Shown: positions 13,540 through 45,753 of the stretch, one piece after another
Layout: each line of letters begins with the position of its first letter
Position numbering within the stretch: the stretch's first letter is position 1
From: Candidatus Falkowbacteria bacterium CG1_02_37_21
GTDB taxonomy: Bacteria > Patescibacteriota > Patescibacteriia > Patescibacteriales > UBA12465
NCBI GenBank assembly: GCA_001871165.1
Contig: MNUT01000002.1
Coordinates: 1-52,102 of the forward strand
DNA length: 52,102 nucleotides
Direction: 5' to 3'
The notes under the pieces: generated by a model
The model's input: the letters and a program-made list of their open reading frames with translations, nothing else
What the model was told of the DNA's origin: nothing
Database searches by the model: none
Program-made: the position numbers and the translations under genes

Positions 13540-13774
13540 GGAGCGGGTAACGGGAATTTCGCCCTCGCCGGCCGCCGGAATTGCGGCCGGCTCACTTGTC
13601 CTGGGTCAGCGCTAAGCATCCCCCGGATGCTTAGCGACGCTCGCCCGCTCGTTCCGGCTTCCGCCGTTCCCTCGCGTCTCGCTTCTGACCTGTTCGATTC
13701 CCGTAAACTAACACAGCAAAAATAAAAACACAGGATAAAATCCTGTGTTTTTATTTGGAGCGGGTAACGGGAAT
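13540..13774 (-). repeat. tRNA-Gly-linked ~217-bp structured mini-element (copy A)
   Basis: 18-bp direct repeat GGAGCGGGTAACGGGAAT at 13540 and 13757; GC-rich hairpin core homologous to 45459-45697. Confidence 0.85.
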
Positions 13775-13778
13775 CGAA
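13758..13778. repeat. att site (displaced tRNA-Gly 3' end)
   Basis: GAGCGGGTAACGGGAATCGAA identical to 20870-20890. Confidence 0.92.
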
Positions 13779-13976
13779 AGGATAGGAACTATTTTTATAA
13801 TTTATTAAATAGTAGATAAATTTCTTTAATGTTAGAAATTTTTTCACATTTTCTAAGTTATCAGTTTTTATCTGAAATAATGGCTATTTACCACCTTTAC
13901 GTCACAATAGCGTCACACTTTATTTGTGAGGCGACAATATAGGAAGGGTGGTAGTAGTCATTCCTAAACTCATAGT

Positions 13977-14894
13977 TTAAATAATATAATTTAATATTCC
14001 CTTTTCAATCATTTCTAAACTAAAAATATAATCATTATGATTAAAGGCCTCTCTTAACGGCCTCGACGTTGATTTCCATCCGTTACCATCAGTAATCCAA
14101 ACAAATTTATATTGGCCATTTAAAACATTAAATAAATCCCTGTATTCACCGGCCGTTGATTTTAACTTTGAACCGCCACCACCATAAAAATTTGTTTCAA
14201 AAATTACTATATCTTTACCGGTGTTTATAACATAATCATAACGTCTAGAAGATTTATCAACCGGCACATCAAAACCCCATTCACTTTTTATTTTTTCCGA
14301 AGTTGCTTCTTTCAAATATTTAAAACCTTTAGTTTTACAAATATCGGCTATAAAAAAGCCGACAATATCTTCCATGGAATGGCCACCTCTATTTTTACGG
14401 CCGTTGCTATCAAGACCGGCCTCTACGCCAATCATATAATCAACCAGATTTTTAATTTTTTGGGAAATGATTAAATCTTTAAGGCCAGTTTCTTTTACAA
14501 ATAATAAATACTTATCAATATCTTTATCGGTTACCGCCTCTTTAGAAAAATCATAATCCTCATAAACTAGCTTTTTCTTTTTATAATCAACTAGAATTTT
14601 AAATTGATTTGTATTACCACCATCACGAACGACTAAAGCCGGAATAACTTTGATAATTTCTGGATTTTGTTTAACTAAAAACTTAAATTCTTTATCAAAA
14701 TCATCTTTGCCAATTAAATAATTAAGATTATTTAAAGCAATTTCTATTTTTCTGGTGTTTGTAAAAACTTTTTCCCAATTTACGAAATAAGACCAAAGCA
14801 TATTGCTTGGCTTGAGATTATTTAAAAAATAATCGAATACCTCGTCCTCGTTTTTACATCCCAAAACTTCATTATAAAATTTAAGAAATTTCAT
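13977..14894 (-). CDS. DpnII-family type II restriction endonuclease (GATC expected)
   Basis: YFVNWEKV, DYMIGVEAGLDSNGRKNRGG, ETNFYGGGGSK, FVWITDGNGW. Confidence 0.92.
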   Translation of the reverse strand: MKFLKFYNEVLGCKNEDEVFDYFLNNLKPSNMLWSYFVNWEKVFTNTRKIEIALNNLNYLIGKDDFDKEFKFLVKQNPEIIKVIPALVVRDGGNTNQFKILVDYKKKKLVYEDYDFSKEAVTDKDIDKYLLFVKETGLKDLIISQKIKNLVDYMIGVEAGLDSNGRKNRGGHSMEDIVGFFIADICKTKGFKYLKEATSEKIKSEWGFDVPVDKSSRRYDYVINTGKDIVIFETNFYGGGGSKLKSTAGEYRDLFNVLNGQYKFVWITDGNGWKSTSRPLREAFNHNDYIFSLEMIEKGILNYII

Positions 14895-14898
14895 AAAT

Positions 14899-15759
14899 TT
14901 ACTTAATTAAATCCTTATATCTCTTAACTGACAATTCTAAATAATTTTTTTCTAAATCAATACCAATAAATTTTCTATCGTTAAGAGCGCAGGCTAAACC
15001 AGTCGTTGAAGAACCCGTAAATGGGTCGATGACTAAATCACCTTTGTTGGTACTAGCCATAACAATACGAACCAATAGATCTATTGGCTTTTGTGTCGGG
15101 TGCTTACCAAACTTCTTTTCGGTAGGTTTCGGCGTCCCCATAGACCAAACACTGCGCATTTGCAGATTTGGCTTTTTTAAAAAGTCTTCTGGCCAATTAC
15201 CATTTTTCATTAAGTCATAATTAAACTTATGTTTAGTGGTTATTGGTTTTCCGGTTTTAGGATGGACTAATTCTTTTCTCGCCCAGATCAAAGTTTCATG
15301 ACTGGCCGTAAAAAAGCGACAGCTTAAATTTGGTGAAGCATTGGGTTTAAACCAGGCAATATCGTTTAAGATGTGAAACTTGCTAACTTGGAGAGCGAAA
15401 CCGCATTGATAGATAGAGTGATAGGTGCCGGAAATCCAAATTGTGCCTCCTGGCTTTAATACTCTATGGCAAGCCTTAATCCAGGCTAATTGAAACTCAA
15501 AGTCTTTCTTTAGACCATTACTGACGTCCCATTCGCCTTTATTAACGCTAACCATCCGCCCAGCGTGAACGGAAAAACCACCATTAGATAATAAATAAGG
15601 TGGATCAGCGAATATCATATCAACCGAGTTCTCTGGCAAAGTAGCTAAAAATTCCAAGCTATTGGCCTGGTACAATTTAAAGTCTTTATCTTTAAAAAAT
15701 GGATCTAACATTTTTTTGCTTTTTTTCTTAGTTTTTATAGCCTTTTTTGAGGTAGTCAT
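14899..15759 (-). CDS. Beta-class N6-adenine methyltransferase, DpnA (M2.DpnII)-like; alternative start 15711
   Basis: DMIFADPPYLLSNGG...VSVNKGEWD, HPTQKP, DPFTGSSTTG. Confidence 0.9.
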   Translation of the reverse strand: MTTSKKAIKTKKKSKKMLDPFFKDKDFKLYQANSLEFLATLPENSVDMIFADPPYLLSNGGFSVHAGRMVSVNKGEWDVSNGLKKDFEFQLAWIKACHRVLKPGGTIWISGTYHSIYQCGFALQVSKFHILNDIAWFKPNASPNLSCRFFTASHETLIWARKELVHPKTGKPITTKHKFNYDLMKNGNWPEDFLKKPNLQMRSVWSMGTPKPTEKKFGKHPTQKPIDLLVRIVMASTNKGDLVIDPFTGSSTTGLACALNDRKFIGIDLEKNYLELSVKRYKDLIK

Positions 15760-15894
15760 ATTATAGCAAATTGGATATGAAGAAAAGATAAAGTCCTATT
15801 CTCTGGCCTAATTTTACGATTTTTTTAGCCAAAAGTCAAAATAATAAAGGGGGCTATTAAACCCCCTTTAGTACCGAACTGTCAAAAACCAACC

Positions 15895-16200
15895 CTATTT
15901 AGTTATGGGCAAATTTAGGGGGCATTGATTTAGTGAAAGTAAGTTATTATTCCAGTCACCATCACTATACGTTCTAAGAAATGGATATCTTCCATCGTTT
16001 GGACGCACAACGCCGACATCAGACCTTTTATTATTTATTGGGTCTAATACATAAAAAGTGTTAGTTTTTTCGTCAATGCTTTTTATTACGGCTTCACGAG
16101 TCCACATCCAATTATTACTGGGATTCCCCACGTGAGTAATATGTTCGTGTGGACTGTTTCTATCAGGTTTTCTAATACAAGTAATTTGGCAATCTGCCAT
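15895..16200 (-). CDS. DUF3892-like small protein
   Basis: ITCIRKPDRNSPHEHITHVG...FLRT..D...NNLLSL. Confidence 0.8.
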   Translation of the reverse strand: MADCQITCIRKPDRNSPHEHITHVGNPSNNWMWTREAVIKSIDEKTNTFYVLDPINNKRSDVGVVRPNDGRYPFLRTYSDGDWNNNLLSLNQCPLNLPITK

Positions 16201-16479
16201 ATATTTTTAAATTAATTTATTAAATTTGCTAAGATCTGAAAAACCTGTTATACTTTTTTTGCAATGAAGTAAATTAGGAAAAACACGTCATCTTAACTGG
16301 TGCTACGTGTTTTTTTGATCATAGAATTTTAGTATCATATTGATATGTTGACTTAATTAATTAAAACTATTAATATTGAATTAACAAAAAGCCATATAAA
16401 AAATTAGGATTTTCCTGATTTCTTGGCTTTCTGGCGAAAAGTAGACCTTATTGCTTTCCACGGCGCAAGGTCTATTTTT

Positions 16480-16857
16480 TTATTTAGTTACCTCTTTTAG
16501 ATCAATAACGTACATTTTTTCTCCATTATTATCAATTTCTTTAGGTGTATACCGTCCTACGTAATTCAAAAAATCAAAATTGTATTTTCCCCAAAATGAG
16601 TTAGACTTAAAATAACCACCCACACCCGAATTTCTTAGTTTTGCAGTTGCTGGTTCTGACGTTTTAAAAAATTTAAAACCAATCGCCAAATGTTCTCTAT
16701 CAAAAAATATCTTAAGAAAATGATAATCCGATAGATTATATTTATTCATAAACCCCGAACTAAATCCGAAGCCACCGTTTTGCCCAATACTAATTCGTGG
16801 GGCAAACTTGCCCTTATAATCAGTAAATTCATCAAAATTGTAATTATTTTCTTCCAT
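16480..16857 (-). CDS. Hypothetical protein
   Basis: 125-aa ATG ORF within the element; no family recognised. Confidence 0.7.
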   Translation of the reverse strand: MEENNYNFDEFTDYKGKFAPRISIGQNGGFGFSSGFMNKYNLSDYHFLKIFFDREHLAIGFKFFKTSEPATAKLRNSGVGGYFKSNSFWGKYNFDFLNYVGRYTPKEIDNNGEKMYVIDLKEVTK

Positions 16858-17138
16858 ATAGTTTGACTTAATAATATAAATAATTGAATTATAGACATCC
16901 AGTAAGGTACTGAGATAAGTTTAGCAAATTGAAATTGTTTTGTCAAGATAGTAATAGTAAATGGTTAAGTAAAATGAACTGTCGCTAACATTAAACAAAA
17001 ATAAGCATTAATTTAAATAATAGTTGATAACTTGTTAATAACTAAATTGAACAGATAAGAATATTATAATACAATAAAGTAAACAACTAGCTATTATTAA
17101 TGTTGAGATTTTGATAACTAAAGTGATAAAATGCTAAC

Positions 17139-18197
17139 ATGACTGAAAAAGCCAAACAACTCAAAAAGAACCTGGATGTCATAATTGATGAATTTACTGA
17201 CGAATACTATAAGGTTTTATTTTCCCCAAAAAAGATGAAAGTAGGAAATAAGCTATCTATATCCTATGAGCTTCCTCGGCTTTTTGTAATTATTAAAAAA
17301 TACATAAGAGAAATTGAATCTAGCAGAATTTTGGACGGCTTTATGAAAGTCCTAAGACAAGAAGTAAAAGCAAATGATCATGACGGCTCACTATTCGGTG
17401 AAAATTTAAATAAAATAAAAAATAACAAAACAAAATCTTATAACTGGGCTTACTATTCTCTTTTTAAAGCAATGCTAGGAGAAGCAAGTGTTCTTGCGTC
17501 ATCTATGCAAAAAATATTAAAAACGGCTGATGTTAATTCTGCCAAGAAAATGCTAGAAAATACGCAAAAACAAATAGAAGAAATAAAGAACATGGAAGAA
17601 GAAATAATAAAACTGAACCTAGATACTATATTAAGGCCAAAAATATATAAAAAATTTCTTAAAGATTTTCATAAAAGCATTATTTCCTGGGTGAATGCCT
17701 ATATTATGACTTCTGAATTTATAGATGATGAAGAAACAATAACCAAAGAACCTTTAACTGATAAATGGGAAGATGTGGGAATAATATTTAATGATGATAT
17801 AAATATAAAATTAGTAATAGACAACAAAGAGGAAAATTCTGATTACGAAAAATTAGGATTTGCTGACACTAGACGTAATTTATTTAAAAAAGCTGTATAT
17901 GTTAAAAGTTGGAATATTCTAATGCTATTTTCTATTAGAAATGGAGTAATAAAAATGAGTGATTTCGCGGGAAACAAAAACAAAAAAGAACTATTTAAAA
18001 AAGACCGGCAAGACTTATCAAAAAGGCTTAAGCGTTATTTCGGGCTAGCAGACGATCCAATAGTCTATGAACCGGATGGCGAAAGATATCGAATCAGAAT
18101 AAAATTAACCCCATCGCCAGATTTTAGAGATTCCTACCTTGATCAAAAAAAGAAGATATCTGAATATAACAAAAAGGATTTTCTAGGAGATTACTAA
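17139..18197 (+). CDS. Hypothetical protein, C-terminal region possibly winged-helix DNA-binding
   Basis: 352-aa ORF; basic helix then beta hairpin (RQDLSKRLKRYFG..DPI..YRIRI); function inferred. Confidence 0.65.
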   Translation: MTEKAKQLKKNLDVIIDEFTDEYYKVLFSPKKMKVGNKLSISYELPRLFVIIKKYIREIESSRILDGFMKVLRQEVKANDHDGSLFGENLNKIKNNKTKSYNWAYYSLFKAMLGEASVLASSMQKILKTADVNSAKKMLENTQKQIEEIKNMEEEIIKLNLDTILRPKIYKKFLKDFHKSIISWVNAYIMTSEFIDDEETITKEPLTDKWEDVGIIFNDDINIKLVIDNKEENSDYEKLGFADTRRNLFKKAVYVKSWNILMLFSIRNGVIKMSDFAGNKNKKELFKKDRQDLSKRLKRYFGLADDPIVYEPDGERYRIRIKLTPSPDFRDSYLDQKKKISEYNKKDFLGDY

Positions 18198-18404
18198 AGA
18201 AATTTCGTCGCTATTTCCCTGGCAATTTAATCCTCTAACTTACCTAAAGTTAGGGGATTTTTTTATTGCCTAAGAAATTTCGTCCATATAGGTTAGGAGA
18301 CAATCAAAAAGGTCGAGCTCCTCACTAATTCTTAATTCTACTCATATGCTTTTTCGTCAAAAATTATTCCCAATAAACAAACGGTCTAGCGACTACTTAA
18401 TTCT

Positions 18405-18520
18405 TTGCCCGCCTTTCTGTTTTTTTCTTTTTCGGCGGCTACCCCGTGGGGGAGCCGAAAAAGAAAAACAGAGGCGGCAAGATATGCAACGCTTCATACC
18501 TGCTTATTAACTTGATTATA
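18405..18520. other. Candidate rolling-circle double-strand origin (long hairpin plus nick-like motif)
   Basis: 76-bp imperfect inverted repeat 18405-18480; CTTATTAACTTGATTATA at 18503-18520, upstream of rep. Confidence 0.5.
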
Positions 18521-18541
18521 TGCACACTTAAGAACACATCT

Positions 18542-18760
18542 ATGTTTTACACTCCAAAACAAATATTCAAAGACCATGATTATCATTCCTGGCTTAAGGA
18601 ACGAATCCAAAATCTAGAGACGGCTATTAGCGAAAATATGCCCTGTGATAGCACCGATGACATGGAACTTTTGAAAAGAAAATTAGCCTCATACCGACAA
18701 GTCGAGGCTGATTTAGCCAAACAATATGGAATACAAAACGAAATGGATAGTAACCGGTGA
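18542..18760 (+). CDS. Small coiled-coil hypothetical protein
   Basis: 72-aa ORF from ATG 18542, overlapping the rep start. Confidence 0.5.
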   Translation: MFYTPKQIFKDHDYHSWLKERIQNLETAISENMPCDSTDDMELLKRKLASYRQVEADLAKQYGIQNEMDSNR

Positions 18761-19418
18761 CCAGGTTGAAGTTTATAAAAATTCAGTCGGGATTAGGATT
18801 GGCAAACGCAAACATAAAAAGAAAAAGACGATTAAAAAAATAGTTAAAACTATCTCTAAAAAATTAAACGAATTTTCCGTTTACCGCACACGCCGAGCCA
18901 TTAAATGGCGCATTAATTCTAATCCCGATATGAATAAATTTTTAACCCTAACTTTTGCCGAAAATCTGACGGATCTCAAAAGTTGTAATGAAAAATTTAA
19001 AGCCTTTATTAGAAAATTAAAAACGATTAAAGAGAATTTGAAATATTTAGTCGTCCCGGAATTTCAGAAACGTGGTGCCGTTCATTATCACGCCTTGCTC
19101 AATCTTGACTACATCGACCAAAAACAATTAGCGGATTTATGGGGTCATGGATTTATTAAGATTAAAAATATTAAAGACGGAATTAATATGGGTTTATATG
19201 TTTCAAAATATATCGGCAAGGATTTAGAGGATGAACGATACTTCAATAACAAAAAATACTTCTGTTCTCGCAACTTAGACAAACCTATGATTTTTTATTC
19301 ACGAGATGAAATTGATAATTTTTTACAGCTTAATTCTTTGACCCCGACTTACGAAAAAACGTTTCAAAGCTATTATGGCTTGATAAATTATCAACTTTTC
19401 AAATTAGACAAAAAATAA
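18726..19418 (+). CDS. HUH rolling-circle replication initiator
   Basis: Motif I FLTLTF, motif II EFQKRGAVHYH, motif III YVSKY. Confidence 0.9.
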   Translation: MEYKTKWIVTGDQVEVYKNSVGIRIGKRKHKKKKTIKKIVKTISKKLNEFSVYRTRRAIKWRINSNPDMNKFLTLTFAENLTDLKSCNEKFKAFIRKLKTIKENLKYLVVPEFQKRGAVHYHALLNLDYIDQKQLADLWGHGFIKIKNIKDGINMGLYVSKYIGKDLEDERYFNNKKYFCSRNLDKPMIFYSRDEIDNFLQLNSLTPTYEKTFQSYYGLINYQLFKLDKK

Positions 19419-19492
19419 AATTGGTAATAGAGTAATACTGTGACTGGCGTAATCCCGTTTTACGTTCCTGTATTGCTCTTTAATAACTTAAT

Positions 19493-19690
19493 ATGTCAAT
19501 TGACCTAACTACAATTGAATTTCTAACTACTGAGCAATTAGCAGGTCTATTAAATATTTCTAAAACTTCTATATATCGTCTAATTGGAAATCGTTTAATT
19601 CCTTTCTACAAACTCGGCCACAATATACGCTTCAAAAAAGCTGATGTTTTGGATTACTTAGAAAAAAATTGTCTTAGGCCGATTTCATGA
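19493..19690 (+). CDS. Excisionase-like HTH protein
   Basis: FLTTEQLAGLLNISKTSIYRLI...IPFYKLG..IRF; immediately upstream of the integrase. Confidence 0.88.
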   Translation: MSIDLTTIEFLTTEQLAGLLNISKTSIYRLIGNRLIPFYKLGHNIRFKKADVLDYLEKNCLRPIS

Positions 19691-19701
19691 TTATATGATT
19701 T

Positions 19702-20871
19702 ATGAGTATCTATAAACGAAAAAATAAATGGTGGGTAGACTTTAGCTTTCAAAATAAACGCTATCGTTTCTGTAGTCCGGAAAATTCCGCTAGTGGTGCT
19801 AGAGCTTATGAGGGATTATTAAGACAAGGCCTATTAAAAGGAGAAAATATTTCTACCAAAATAGAGCCCTGTCCAGTTTTTTCAGCTTTCGCCGAAAAAT
19901 GGTTTATCAATTATGTTAAATCAAATAATAAGTTCTCTGAGTACTGCAATAAACAAAGCGTTTATAAAGTCCACCTTGAACCATTTTTTGGTAAATTAAG
20001 TCTTGATCAAATTACAGCTTATAAGATAGAAGAATTTAAGGCATTAAAGACCCAGTCTACTCTTGCCCCTAAAACTATCAATAAGATGCTCTCAACCCTC
20101 AGGAAAGCCTTAAATACGGCAGAGGAGTGGGGTTTACTAGTTTCTGTGCCCAAAATTAAGCTTCTAAAAGTACCACCTCAAAAATTTGATTATCTTTTAC
20201 CAGAAGAAGAAGACTTTCTACTAGAAAACACCGAAGGCATATGGCACAATATGATTCTATTAGCTCTTAAGACCGGATTAAGATTTGGCGAGATAATTGC
20301 TTTAAACTGGGAAGACATTGATTTCTCAAATAAACTCCTAACCGTTCGCCATTCCATTGTTCGAGGAATAATGGGAAGTCCAAAAAGTAACAAGATTAGA
20401 TATATTCCAATGACTGATTCTTTATTGGAAATGCTTTGGAATAAATCAAAAAATGAAGATTATATTTTTACTCTAGGAAACAATAAACCAATGAAGCAAA
20501 TTTATTGTTTAAAAAATATGACTCGCATTTGTAAGAAATTAAATATACGCAAAATAGGTTGGCACGTTTTACGCCATACTTTTGCTTCACGCCTAGCAAA
20601 CAACGGAGTTTCTATGAAAGTTATTCAAGAACTTTTAGGCCACTCCGATATTACCACGACAATGCGCTATGCTCATTTGTCGCCGATCACTCTTCGAGAA
20701 TCTATACGCACTTTAGATAATCGAAAAGCCATTGAATTAGAGATATGTCACAAAAATGTCACAAATGTCACAATCACTAATTTAAAAGAGACGGATTTAG
20801 CTCCGGTTAAATCTCAAATTTTCCCCGAAGATAAACAAAAACAGACATCTCTGTCTGTTAATGTTTTGTGA
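19702..20871 (+). CDS. Tyrosine recombinase/integrase
   Basis: Catalytic R (TGLRFGE), K (PKS), HVLRH, LGH, Y (TMRY); stop codon overlaps att. Confidence 0.96.
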   Translation: MSIYKRKNKWWVDFSFQNKRYRFCSPENSASGARAYEGLLRQGLLKGENISTKIEPCPVFSAFAEKWFINYVKSNNKFSEYCNKQSVYKVHLEPFFGKLSLDQITAYKIEEFKALKTQSTLAPKTINKMLSTLRKALNTAEEWGLLVSVPKIKLLKVPPQKFDYLLPEEEDFLLENTEGIWHNMILLALKTGLRFGEIIALNWEDIDFSNKLLTVRHSIVRGIMGSPKSNKIRYIPMTDSLLEMLWNKSKNEDYIFTLGNNKPMKQIYCLKNMTRICKKLNIRKIGWHVLRHTFASRLANNGVSMKVIQELLGHSDITTTMRYAHLSPITLRESIRTLDNRKAIELEICHKNVTNVTITNLKETDLAPVKSQIFPEDKQKQTSLSVNVL

Positions 20872-20890
20872 GCGGGTAACGGGAATCGAA
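20870..20890. repeat. att site within tRNA-Gly
   Basis: Identical to 13758-13778. Confidence 0.92.
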
Positions 20891-20942
20891 CCCGTCTCTT
20901 GAACTTGGCAAGCTCACATAATAACCACTATACGATACCCGC
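20871..20942 (-). tRNA. tRNA-Gly(GCC)
   Basis: Acceptor GCGGGTA/TACCCGC, anticodon loop TTGCCAA, T-loop TTCGATT. Confidence 0.95.
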
Positions 20943-21051: not shown

Positions 21052-21071
21052 GTTTATCTTAGTATACTTTG

Positions 21072-21449
21072 TGGAGATGATGGGAATTGAACCCATGTCC
21101 AACCGGTTTCTGTAAATAAGTGTACAAAAGTAGTCCGTTTTGTTGTTTGACTAGTACCATAGGAAAACGAACGAAAAGCGATACTAGCGATCTTCCTATT
21201 GTTTCGAGATTAACCGGAAAGCGCGATTAAAGTCTAGTCTCATGATTATGACACCGAACGCCGCTTATGAAACCTGGGCGTCGTCGATGGTTGTGGCTAT
21301 ATTAAGCGACAACAGGAGCGTAGCTCGGAGTTAACCAAGTGAACGCTGTAGCCGATTTGGCATTTATGTTTTTTAGCCAGTTTTACGTGTTAGCTAAGCG
21401 CGTTTTGCTTATTTAGAGAAAGGTCCGGCTGTCGACGCCTGACATCCCC
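21072..21449 (-). ncRNA. ssrA: tmRNA
   Basis: 5' GGGGATG...TCGAC, 3' GGGTTCAATTCCCATCATCTCCA with G3-U70; tag frame 21361-21302; adjacent to smpB. Confidence 0.95.
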
Positions 21450-45128: not shown

Positions 45129-45458
45129 ATTATTTTACTTGTATTGGACAGAATAAGTTGTTTTTGTCCACTACAAGTAGTATAATGGACAGGAACGGGA
45201 AAGTCAACAATAATTAGCACTTATGGACGATTAAGAAACCCTAATAGAATACAAGGATAAATATCAGCTCAAATGGAGGAAATTTTTATGGACAAATTAG
45301 CCTATCCAAACCATCATTCCTTCACCGATCATCAGAGGCTTAATGCAGGCCGAGGACATGGTCTTTACCAAGAAATACAAAAATCCCAACAAATTAATTA
45401 AGCTTTGGATTAGAATTGAAGTCAATCAACCGAACTTGGTTATATTAGATACCGTTTG

Positions 45459-45697
45459 GGGTGCCTATCGGGAATTAGCGCGCTCAACCGCCGCCAGAAT
45501 TGCGGCGGTCTCGCTTGTCCAGGGTTGGCGTCCGATATGCCACCCGGCATATCGTCCGACGCTCTCCTTTTCGCTATTTCTTCCGAAATAGCTCAAGACT
45601 CGCTGCCAACCTGTCCGATTCCCCGCGACTACGTCGCTATAATAAAAATAATCCAGAAAATTCTGGATTATTTTTATTATGGGTGCCTATCGGGAAT
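45459..45697 (-). repeat. tRNA-His-linked ~222-bp structured mini-element (copy B)
   Basis: 17-bp direct repeat GGGTGCCTATCGGGAAT at 45459 and 45681; core homologous to 13540-13774. Confidence 0.85.
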
Positions 45698-45753
45698 CGG
45701 ACCCGAAATAACAGGACCACAACCTGCTGTGTTACCACTACACCATAGGCACC
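45682..45753 (-). tRNA. tRNA-His(GTG)
   Basis: G-1, acceptor GTGCCTA/TAGGCAC, C73, loop TTGTGGT; atypical T-loop TCCGATT. Confidence 0.92.

Follow-up and report, generated by a model that had tools for sequence, protein, structure and literature searches.

The window analyzed here is a stretch of 52,102 nucleotides (nt) from Candidatus Falkowbacteria bacterium CG1_02_37_21, a member of the Patescibacteriota (assembly GCA_001871165.1, contig MNUT01000002.1, positions 1 to 52,102 of the forward strand), and corresponds to contig C13 of genome G000, which comprises 696,515 bp in 32 contigs, has a GC content of 37% and is estimated to be 94.7% complete. At window positions 45459-45697, the gene for tRNA-His (GTG) has, between nt 57 and 58, a GC-rich element of 221 bp that carries no protein, hereafter copy B (Table 1). 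Downstream of the 3' end of tRNA-His, a palindromic hairpin is followed by a small hairpin, the inverted 11-mer GTCCGATTCCC, a GC-rich core and a second copy of the tRNA end. Read on the tRNA-sense strand, GTCCGATTCCC is complementary to both flanks of the 57/58 junction. A second element, copy A (13540-13774), aligns end to end with copy B, with compensatory differences in the stems, and carries at the equivalent position GTTCGATTCCC, which is tRNA-Gly-like rather than tRNA-His-like.

Table 1. Features of the two element copies and their target tRNA genes in the window (CM, covariance model).
Feature	Window position	Strand	Remarks
tRNA-His (GTG)	45681..45752	-	Encoded G-1; T-arm GGGTCCGATTCCC; T-loop TCCGATT (C at position 55)
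Copy B, proximal 17-nt repeat	45681..45697	-	Present tRNA-His nt 58-74
Copy B, perfect AT-rich palindromic hairpin	45638..45680		A-run and T-run; directly 3' of tRNA-His
Copy B, small hairpin GCGAC-TAC-GTCGC	45625..45637		Recurs in copies at other tRNAs, loop TAC or TAAC
Copy B, guide-like segment GTCCGATTCCC	45613..45623	+	Identical to tRNA-His nt 53-63, inverted
Copy B, structured core	45476..45612		CM score 171 bits
Copy B, core long-range helix	45523-45529 with 45606-45611
Copy B, core hairpin	45573-45592		Loop TTCC (GGAA on tRNA-sense strand)
Copy B, core hairpin	45530-45562
Copy B, core hairpin	45487-45509
Copy B, conserved core joiners			CTCGCTTGTCC, GACGCTC, CTCGCT
Copy B, distal 17-nt direct repeat	45459..45475	-	Original tRNA-His nt 58-74 (exact repeat, empty-site contigs, locus L083)
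Copy A, distal repeat	13541..13557	-	tRNA-Gly nt 58-74; native minus-strand terminator then at 13503-13469
Copy A, core, guide-like segment and terminator hairpin	13558..13757		Segment GTTCGATTCCC at 13692-13702; CM score 173 bits
Middle repeat, former tRNA-Gly 3' end	13758..13778	-	Ends TCCA; cut off from the gene by the later island
Integrative island, 7.1 kb	13779..20869		Between tRNA-Gly and copy A; separate from the small element
tRNA-Gly (GCC), target of copy A	20870..20942	-

Next to the distal repeat of copy B, the native C75-A76 of tRNA-His occupies 45457-45458, with the native flank to its left, so that 45457-45475 is the complement of ATTCCCGATAGGCACCCCA, terminating C-CCA; the gene-side repeat at 45680-45697 is the complement of ATTCCCGATAGGCACCCA, terminating C-CA. 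The T-arm, the inverted copy at 45613-45623, the two repeat ends and the segment of copy A are all as given in a preliminary description of this DNA, which had been made from the letters alone. In sequence, the hairpin at 45638-45680 looks like a bidirectional terminator; it was not called by a consensus terminator scan, and the core of its stem has only two G-C pairs. The ends of copy B (TAGCGCGCTC... and ...TTTTTATTAT) are not complementary, and a repeat search returned no terminal inverted pair in either copy.

The preliminary description had proposed that the distal repeat is the original chromosomal end of tRNA-His, pushed outward by an integration event, and had predicted that an empty site would join GGCACCCCA to AACGGTATC. 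A neighboring 428-aa protein failed as a synteny anchor, as tRNA-His was absent beside it in the four best loci, and the search for empty sites was instead anchored on the tRNA-His/tRNA-Arg pair. Among 30 such loci of the genus, six are occupied and 24 empty. All six occupied tRNA-His genes end in ...CACCC followed by the A/T-rich hairpin of the element, and CCA is encoded (CACCCCA) at just seven of the 24 empty sites. The predicted junction was found in aquifer metagenome contigs: in three of four runs, window position 45467 is joined directly to 45708 through 18 other bases that form a different T-arm, and the element is absent (...AGGCACCCCA followed by AACGGTATC), while the fourth run (X17) gave no joint across the element. 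With 3 differences in 45 flank bases, the empty-site contig comes from a related population and not from the same strain. In the congeneric locus L083, which is also empty, ...GGCACCCCA is followed by AATAGTATCTAATATAGC, which is homologous to the distal flank of the window, AACGGTATCTAATATAAC. At the copy on contig C16, moreover, a hairpin with a T-run, the native terminator, comes after the distal repeat. The empty contigs, L083 and the native terminators at copy A and C16 thus bear out the displacement of the original end. The displacement of the CCA end, which had been described along with it, is real in copy B, but the one-base difference between the two repeats is limited to this copy.

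A covariance model built from six copies of G000 finds nine copies in this genome. In a draw of relatives, the element is present in 28 of 61 genomes (G000 counted), with up to 14 copies per genome; matches occur in 24 of the 36 congeneric genomes and in three of 24 other families within the order. An even draw of the class gave matches in 24 of its 151 genomes, or 22 of 137 genera. When the window was compared with Rfam at the gathering threshold, only rRNA, tmRNA and tRNAs were matched, and a search of copies A and B on both strands with E up to 10 returned only chance matches to the AT-rich hairpin. Scans of viral and genome collections with two degenerate patterns of the core gave chance matches in GC-rich genomes; of the viral loci found with the stricter pattern, 0 of 53 were confirmed by the covariance model, and the loci from the genome collection were left unscreened. 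A full-text literature search, judged at the level of titles and the openings of abstracts, turned up no description of such an element. A coding reading was rejected, as the open reading frames (ORFs) through the element are GC-rich repeat artefacts and the variation in the helices is compensatory.

Within 75 fetched loci, 91 model matches were examined (the duplicate loci L135, L085, L078 and L044 having been dropped). A tRNA gene lies on the opposite strand within 450 nt downstream in 66 of the 91 copies and is directly adjacent (gap <70 nt) in 58, most of the other eight being second tandem units. The adjacent tRNAs represent 16 isoacceptors for 10 amino acids, namely His, Glu (2), Gln (2), Gly (2), Ser (3), Trp, Ala (2), Val, Cys and Leu. 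Repeat identity begins sharply at nt 58, and none extends upstream of this position in 54 of the 58 tRNA-adjacent copies. The modal repeat comprises tRNA nt 58-74: the exact repeat is 17 nt long in 19 of the 58 copies, 18 nt in nine, 16 nt in two, 19-21 nt in seven and at least 32 nt in four tandem cases, with the other 17 being shorter because they contain a mismatch or because their 5' end is degenerate or truncated. The repeats always bear the acceptor variants of the resident tRNA, such as GGGGC in L017 or ...CTGC in L034, which fits a duplication of the target. The gene-side repeat, with the palindromic terminator of the element directly after it, keeps the tRNA intact, and the old 3' end of the tRNA has been moved ~200 bp away together with its CCA, its flank and its native terminator. 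Tandem arrays occur at contig ends, with 214-bp units at tRNA-Glu(TTC) on C10 and C28 and identical 199-bp units on C8.

The remaining 25 copies have no tRNA nearby, and unrelated DNA often comes after a partial repeat. A Pfam scan of 23 ORFs beside such copies detected no recombinase within 2.6 kb; it returned cargo-type and housekeeping genes (NYN, PAP2, HAD, AAA_5, ART-PolyVal, DpnII and others). In G000, the distal repeat of the full copy at C14:34945-35121 is complementary to ...AATCCCCGCCTTCGCCACCA, which is the CCA-bearing 3' end of a tRNA; no tRNA gene with this 3' end was found in the assembly, and neither a proximal repeat nor a tRNA lies alongside. At locus L017 (G032:C1, 1676-2657), an insert of ~1 kb encoding an NYN-domain protein is located between two element copies at tRNA-Glu, and an end sequence like its GGAATTATTGGGGAAATTG also follows partial repeats in L036 and L039, which suggests a second kind of small tRNA-end insert.

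The preliminary description had further noted that the inverted segment matches the particular tRNA beside which it lies, and this holds across the family. Compared with nt 53-60 of the cognate tRNA in the 58 tRNA-adjacent copies, the segment is exact in 47, has one mismatch in eight and two mismatches in three. A fixed inverted sequence regardless of the tRNA was not seen in these additional copies. The match includes nt 54-57, which lie outside the repeat and are unpaired in the fold, and these are exact in 52 of the 58 copies and in 12 of 12 with loops other than TTCG (TCCGATT, TTCAAGT, TTCAAAT, TTCAACT). When tRNAs were re-assigned at random, the observed match total was reached in none of 2000 permutations. 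Position by position, the match frequency is 0.86-1.00 at nt 53-63, 0.02 at nt 51-52 and 0.53 at nt 64. The matched 11-mer is therefore nt 53-63, centered on the 57/58 junction, beyond which it extends by 5 nt in one direction and 6 nt in the other, so that its tRNA-sense complement could pair contiguously across both sides of the insertion point. We consider this centering to be the most telling new fact. The TCCGATT loop itself, in which C55 replaces the near-universal U in tRNA-His, is found in 13 of 30 tRNA-His genes of the genus and also in tRNA-Gly and tRNA-Cys of other genomes.

Similarity between cores does not track tRNA identity. Core identity is 88% between the His and Val copies of G014 and 90% between the His copy of G066 and the Ser copy of G015, whereas it is only 81% between the His copy of G014 and that of G069. 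In G000, the C14 and C21 copies have an exact block of 75 nt in common, which ends at T-loop nt 56; beyond it, the rest of the 11-mer and everything after differ.

The core has a seven-helix fold. An alignment of 85 copies to the model has 88.7% of its cells paired and, in 37 of 40 pairs, changes on both sides (813 cells). The covariation score was reached in none of 500 shuffles and it falls from 0.577 to 0.13 or less when partners are slid by 1-3 columns; the alignment was fitted to the model and hence favors it. In helix 1, the distal repeat is paired with the 11-mer over 6-7 bp, and these pairs covary. As to the strand that folds, G·U outnumbers A·C by 198 to 46 on the plus strand of the window (66 to 41 when the three terminal pairs are left out). 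In favor of the tRNA-sense strand, one of the hairpins most often has the loop GGAA (46 of 85 copies), and purines make up 72% of the unpaired positions. The minimum free energy (MFE) of single sequences is also lower on the tRNA-sense strand in 78 of 80 copies (79 of 80 with DNA parameters), as is the consensus energy from alifold (-23.8 vs -14.9 kcal/mol), both energy measures being open to composition bias.

The reading that we favor, with a probability of about one half, is that these copies belong to a family of ~200-bp, non-autonomous, retargetable insertion elements, which enter tRNA genes between nt 57 and 58 and carry an internal guide-like 11-mer. The 11-mer would act as an internal guide or splint that selects the tRNA by pairing with the target strand on both sides of the junction; the 17-bp repeat would be a target-site duplication or an att-like block of identity. 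The tRNA would survive the insertion by means of the element's own terminator, and mobilization would depend on a factor provided in trans. To retarget an element to another tRNA, it may be enough that one to three bases of the guide change, and such retargeting would explain why the closest relatives within one genome reside at different tRNAs. The preliminary description had argued for a target-specifying mechanism rather than simple duplication. This is plausible, as the 11-nt match spans the insertion point and close cores carry different matches, but no enzyme was found and homogenization is possible. Its further suggestion of a folded single strand recombined by an integrase is now one option among several.

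Several observations weigh against the favored reading. Eleven of the 58 guides have one or two mismatches in nt 53-60. Owing to the strong conservation of T-arms, non-cognate pairs whose 8-mers differ do so at only 1.53 of 8 positions on average, and the tracking of the target therefore rests mainly on the informative nt 55, 57, 59 and 63. Quasi-palindrome correction of the inverted 11-mer by the nearby T-arm could mimic such tracking, and unequal crossing-over could yield identical tandem units without transposition. The empty sites belong to other species or populations (~93% identical flank) and thus do not demonstrate recent movement in this strain; no excised, circular or RNA form was seen, no RNA run being listed for the locus. 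The wobble counts conflict with loop composition, MFE and alifold over which strand folds. When the 703 ORFs of 75 element loci were clustered, neither a recombinase nor any other ORF family recurred apart from syntenic housekeeping genes and repeat artefacts, and across the 61 relatives none of the candidate families (tyrosine recombinase, IS110, reverse transcriptase (RT), Y1) tracks the element. In G004, a genome in one contig with four copies, IS110, RT and Y1 are all without a match, which leaves just a tyrosine recombinase, Xer-like and 319 aa long; in G014, with 14 copies, two tyrosine recombinases were found and no IS110, RT or Y1.

Individual enzyme families were examined as possible partners. 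In many copy-bearing genomes, a ~320-aa Xer-like gene is the only tyrosine recombinase (counted as PF00589 matches, unsubtyped), and G000 has an Xer-like recombinase as well as the integrase of the island at tRNA-Gly. IS110 was rejected as a general partner: PF01548 matches occur in seven of the 61 genomes and in none of G004, G014, G015 and G030, which hold 4-14 copies, and the one IS110-type gene of G000 is not beside any full copy. The Y1 transposase was likewise rejected, with no PF01797 match in G000 and matches in four of the 36 genus genomes. A 121-aa IS200-type Y1 transposase lies directly upstream of the element copy at L036 (G017:C2, 1741-2106) and is probably a chance neighbor; three identical copies of it are present in that genome, and it has no relative in G000. 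RTs, also discarded as general partners, have no match in many element-bearing genomes, and the two in G000 lie on other contigs (C3:1502-2488 and C7:11715-12710). These are 328-331 aa in length, each beside a small divergent ORF (C3:1114-2488, C7:11715-13671) that may be Avd, and a 115-nt repeat pair of 82.6% identity is located near one of them; both are probably diversity-generating retroelements. TnpB-like proteins and serine recombinases were discarded as general partners too: no TnpB-like gene was matched in G000, and two large serine recombinases scored above the cut-off there, neither of them adjacent to full copies. At C21:17294-28106, tRNA-Ser(GCT) is followed by ~10.5 kb with a large serine recombinase and the IS110-type gene and then by a tRNA-Ser-like 3'-end fragment with the 3' half of an element copy; from its sequence, this stretch looks like another island wedged between tRNA and element.

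At the tRNA-Gly locus of the window, the tRNA 3' end is present three times, at 13541-13557, at 13758-13778 and in the gene itself, with copy A between the first two. The island sits between the middle repeat and tRNA-Gly and therefore arrived after copy A. It encodes a DpnII endonuclease and an N6/N4 methylase (13977-15759), a rolling-circle-type replication protein of the REP_ORF2-G2P kind (18726-19418) and a tyrosine integrase (19702-20871), whose stop codon overlaps the tRNA-Gly 3' end. Its repeat of 21-27 bp spans the entire T-loop (TTCGATTCCCGTTACCCGCTCCA), whereas that of copy A starts only at A58. Elsewhere in the window, a tmRNA gene (21071-21449; tag peptide AKSATAFTWLTPSYAPVVA) lies beside tRNA-Leu and tRNA-Gly, and the 5' 872 positions of a 23S rRNA gene occupy 1-999 on the minus strand.

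A nucleic-acid-guided, reprogrammable insertion, in which the 11-mer pairs with the tRNA gene or the tRNA itself across the 57/58 junction and directs a cut-and-join reaction with a fixed 17-nt stagger, is possible but tentative. The cutting and joining activity might then be provided by the host, by a factor in trans or by the element's own fold acting as a ribozyme, a proposal that is just as tentative.

It is less likely that the copies are mini-elements dependent on an integrase, resembling cis-mobilizable elements, with the 17-bp repeats as attL and attR cores, a replacement tRNA 3' end and a tyrosine recombinase in trans. The tRNA 3' ends are true integration hot spots here, as seen from the 7.1-kb island at tRNA-Gly and the ~10.5-kb two-recombinase stretch at tRNA-Ser on C21, the tandem arrays resemble repeated site-specific integration, and the tyrosine recombinases are the one recombinase family that nearly all element-bearing genomes have in common. 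However, the block of identity starts in the middle of the T-loop at nt 58 and excludes nt 54-57, while a T-loop crossover needs the whole 7-nt loop, which the repeat of the island has. Moreover, many copy-bearing genomes have only the ~320-aa Xer-like gene and there is no integrase in cis. Acceptor variants of the resident tRNA within the repeats fit a target duplication better than an imported 3' end, and a conserved multi-helix core of 130 nt exceeds what known att sites need. Were such a recombinase at work, the island integrase or the host Xer would be the candidates, neither assignment being likely, and the substrate would perhaps be a folded single strand in which the 11-mer and the repeat mimic a T-arm duplex, with which the covarying helix 1 of 6-7 bp agrees. 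Folded single strands serve as recombination sites in integron attC and CTX phage attP.

Still less likely is an RNA gene read in the tRNA sense, an intron- or ribozyme-like insertion in the T-loop, in which the complement of the 11-mer aligns exon 1 (to nt 57) with a distal exon 2 (nt 58-76) in the manner of P1 and P10 of group I introns, and which would move through the reverse reaction at the RNA level or a co-opted enzyme. The tRNA-sense guide, with the part pairing to nt 58-63 at its 5' end and the part pairing to nt 53-57 at its 3' end, has the order of a group I internal guide. Insert and distal exon begin with the same bases, the distal exon retains CCA and the native terminator, and the GGAA tetraloop (46 of 85 copies), the purine-rich joiners and the lower folding energy all favor the tRNA-sense strand. 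Yet the wobble-pair count points to the other strand, and Rfam gave no match on either strand with E up to 10. The base before the junction is R57 and not the U of a U·G pair, and the last base of the insert is mostly A and not G. The tRNA is already complete without splicing, and the strong U-run hairpin between tRNA and core should halt most transcripts.

Improbable, finally, is a trans-acting small RNA from the plus strand, convergent with the tRNA, which would begin at its 5' end with 17-19 nt antisense to the 3' end of the tRNA and would finish at a shared terminator, serving as guide plus scaffold for a protein or, no more probably, as a tRNA-binding regulator. The layout of a 5' target-complementary stretch, a structured scaffold and a terminator would suit it, as would the conserved terminal G·U pairs on the plus strand and a terminator hairpin with T-runs both ways; however, promoter scans found no plus-strand promoter upstream of copy A or copy B, where the DNA is an unrelated native flank at each locus, the unpaired regions of the plus strand are 72% pyrimidine, neither a TnpB-like gene in G000 nor a recurrent nuclease gene near the copies was found, and a small RNA does not by itself account for empty and occupied sites.

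Whatever their mode of insertion, these elements matter for annotation. Their repeats break Patescibacteria assemblies at tRNA genes, as in contigs C8, C10 and C28, which end in arrays, and they create false ORFs and displace native tRNA 3' ends. They also mark tRNA 3' ends at which defense-type islands later accumulate.

Compared with known systems, the element is closest in its location to tRNA islands and cis-mobilizable elements, with which it has in common insertion at the tRNA 3' end, a flanking repeat of this end, an intact tRNA, a displaced old end and accretion in tandem. Unlike these, it is only ~200 bp long and geneless, and its constant 17-bp block (nt 58-74) lacks half of the T-loop. 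An additional 11-mer of inverted target sequence, a covarying seven-helix core, 16 isoacceptors as hosts and related cores at different tRNAs also set it apart from tRNA islands. Members of the IS200/IS605 family and their miniatures resemble it in choosing a target, as proposed for the element, by pairing with a short internal sequence, in their structured ends, in the existence of non-autonomous copies and possibly in strand-specific chemistry on single strands. In IS200/IS605, a guide pairs with the cleavage site, targets are 4-5 nt long and no flanking duplication arises, whereas the element has a 17-bp repeat, and Y1 is not matched in G000 and is found in four of 36 genomes of the genus. 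The bridge and seek RNAs of IS110/IS1111 are likewise structured non-coding modules of ~150-200 nt that find a target by complementarity and of which stand-alone copies exist. In bridge RNAs, separate loop arms read the two halves of the target, each on a different strand, and no long duplication results; the target match of the element is instead one contiguous 11-mer, and a DEDD transposase is present in only seven of 61 genomes.

The guides of group I and group II introns pair contiguously on both sides of the insertion point and vary with the host site; the 11-mer varies likewise and would pair in the same manner. However, no Rfam intron, Intron_gpI included, was matched with E up to 10, the element is far smaller, the host tRNA does not depend on splicing, and between tRNA and core there is a terminator; in contrast to group I introns, the junction base is G57 or A57 in eight loop types and the last base of the insert is A in copies A, B and C16. 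With target-primed retroposons of the SINE type, the element shares small size, structure, lack of autonomy and a target duplication of 15-20 bp, but it has no A-tail, and RT matches are missing from many element-bearing genomes. Three further kinds were considered and rejected: MITEs (miniature transposable elements with inverted repeats), as there are no terminal inverted repeats and the duplication is 17 bp rather than the 2-10 bp of MITEs; integron attC, as the sequence is GTTCGAT or GTCCGAT (C at position 4) rather than the core site GTTRRRY; and the RNA of a retron or diversity-generating retroelement, as no RT is adjacent and the RT genes of G000 lie on other contigs. Integrase-dependent elements apart, the element fails the tested defining features of the known kinds with which it was compared, and is placed among site-specific mobile elements that target tRNA genes. 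If the 11-mer truly specifies the site, it would represent a very compact natural form of sequence-addressed DNA insertion, a protein-less mobile module that bears its own address and is present in some of the smallest bacterial genomes, and it would stand beside group II introns, the guides of IS200/IS605 and the bridge RNAs of IS110 with a different anatomy and no linked protein.

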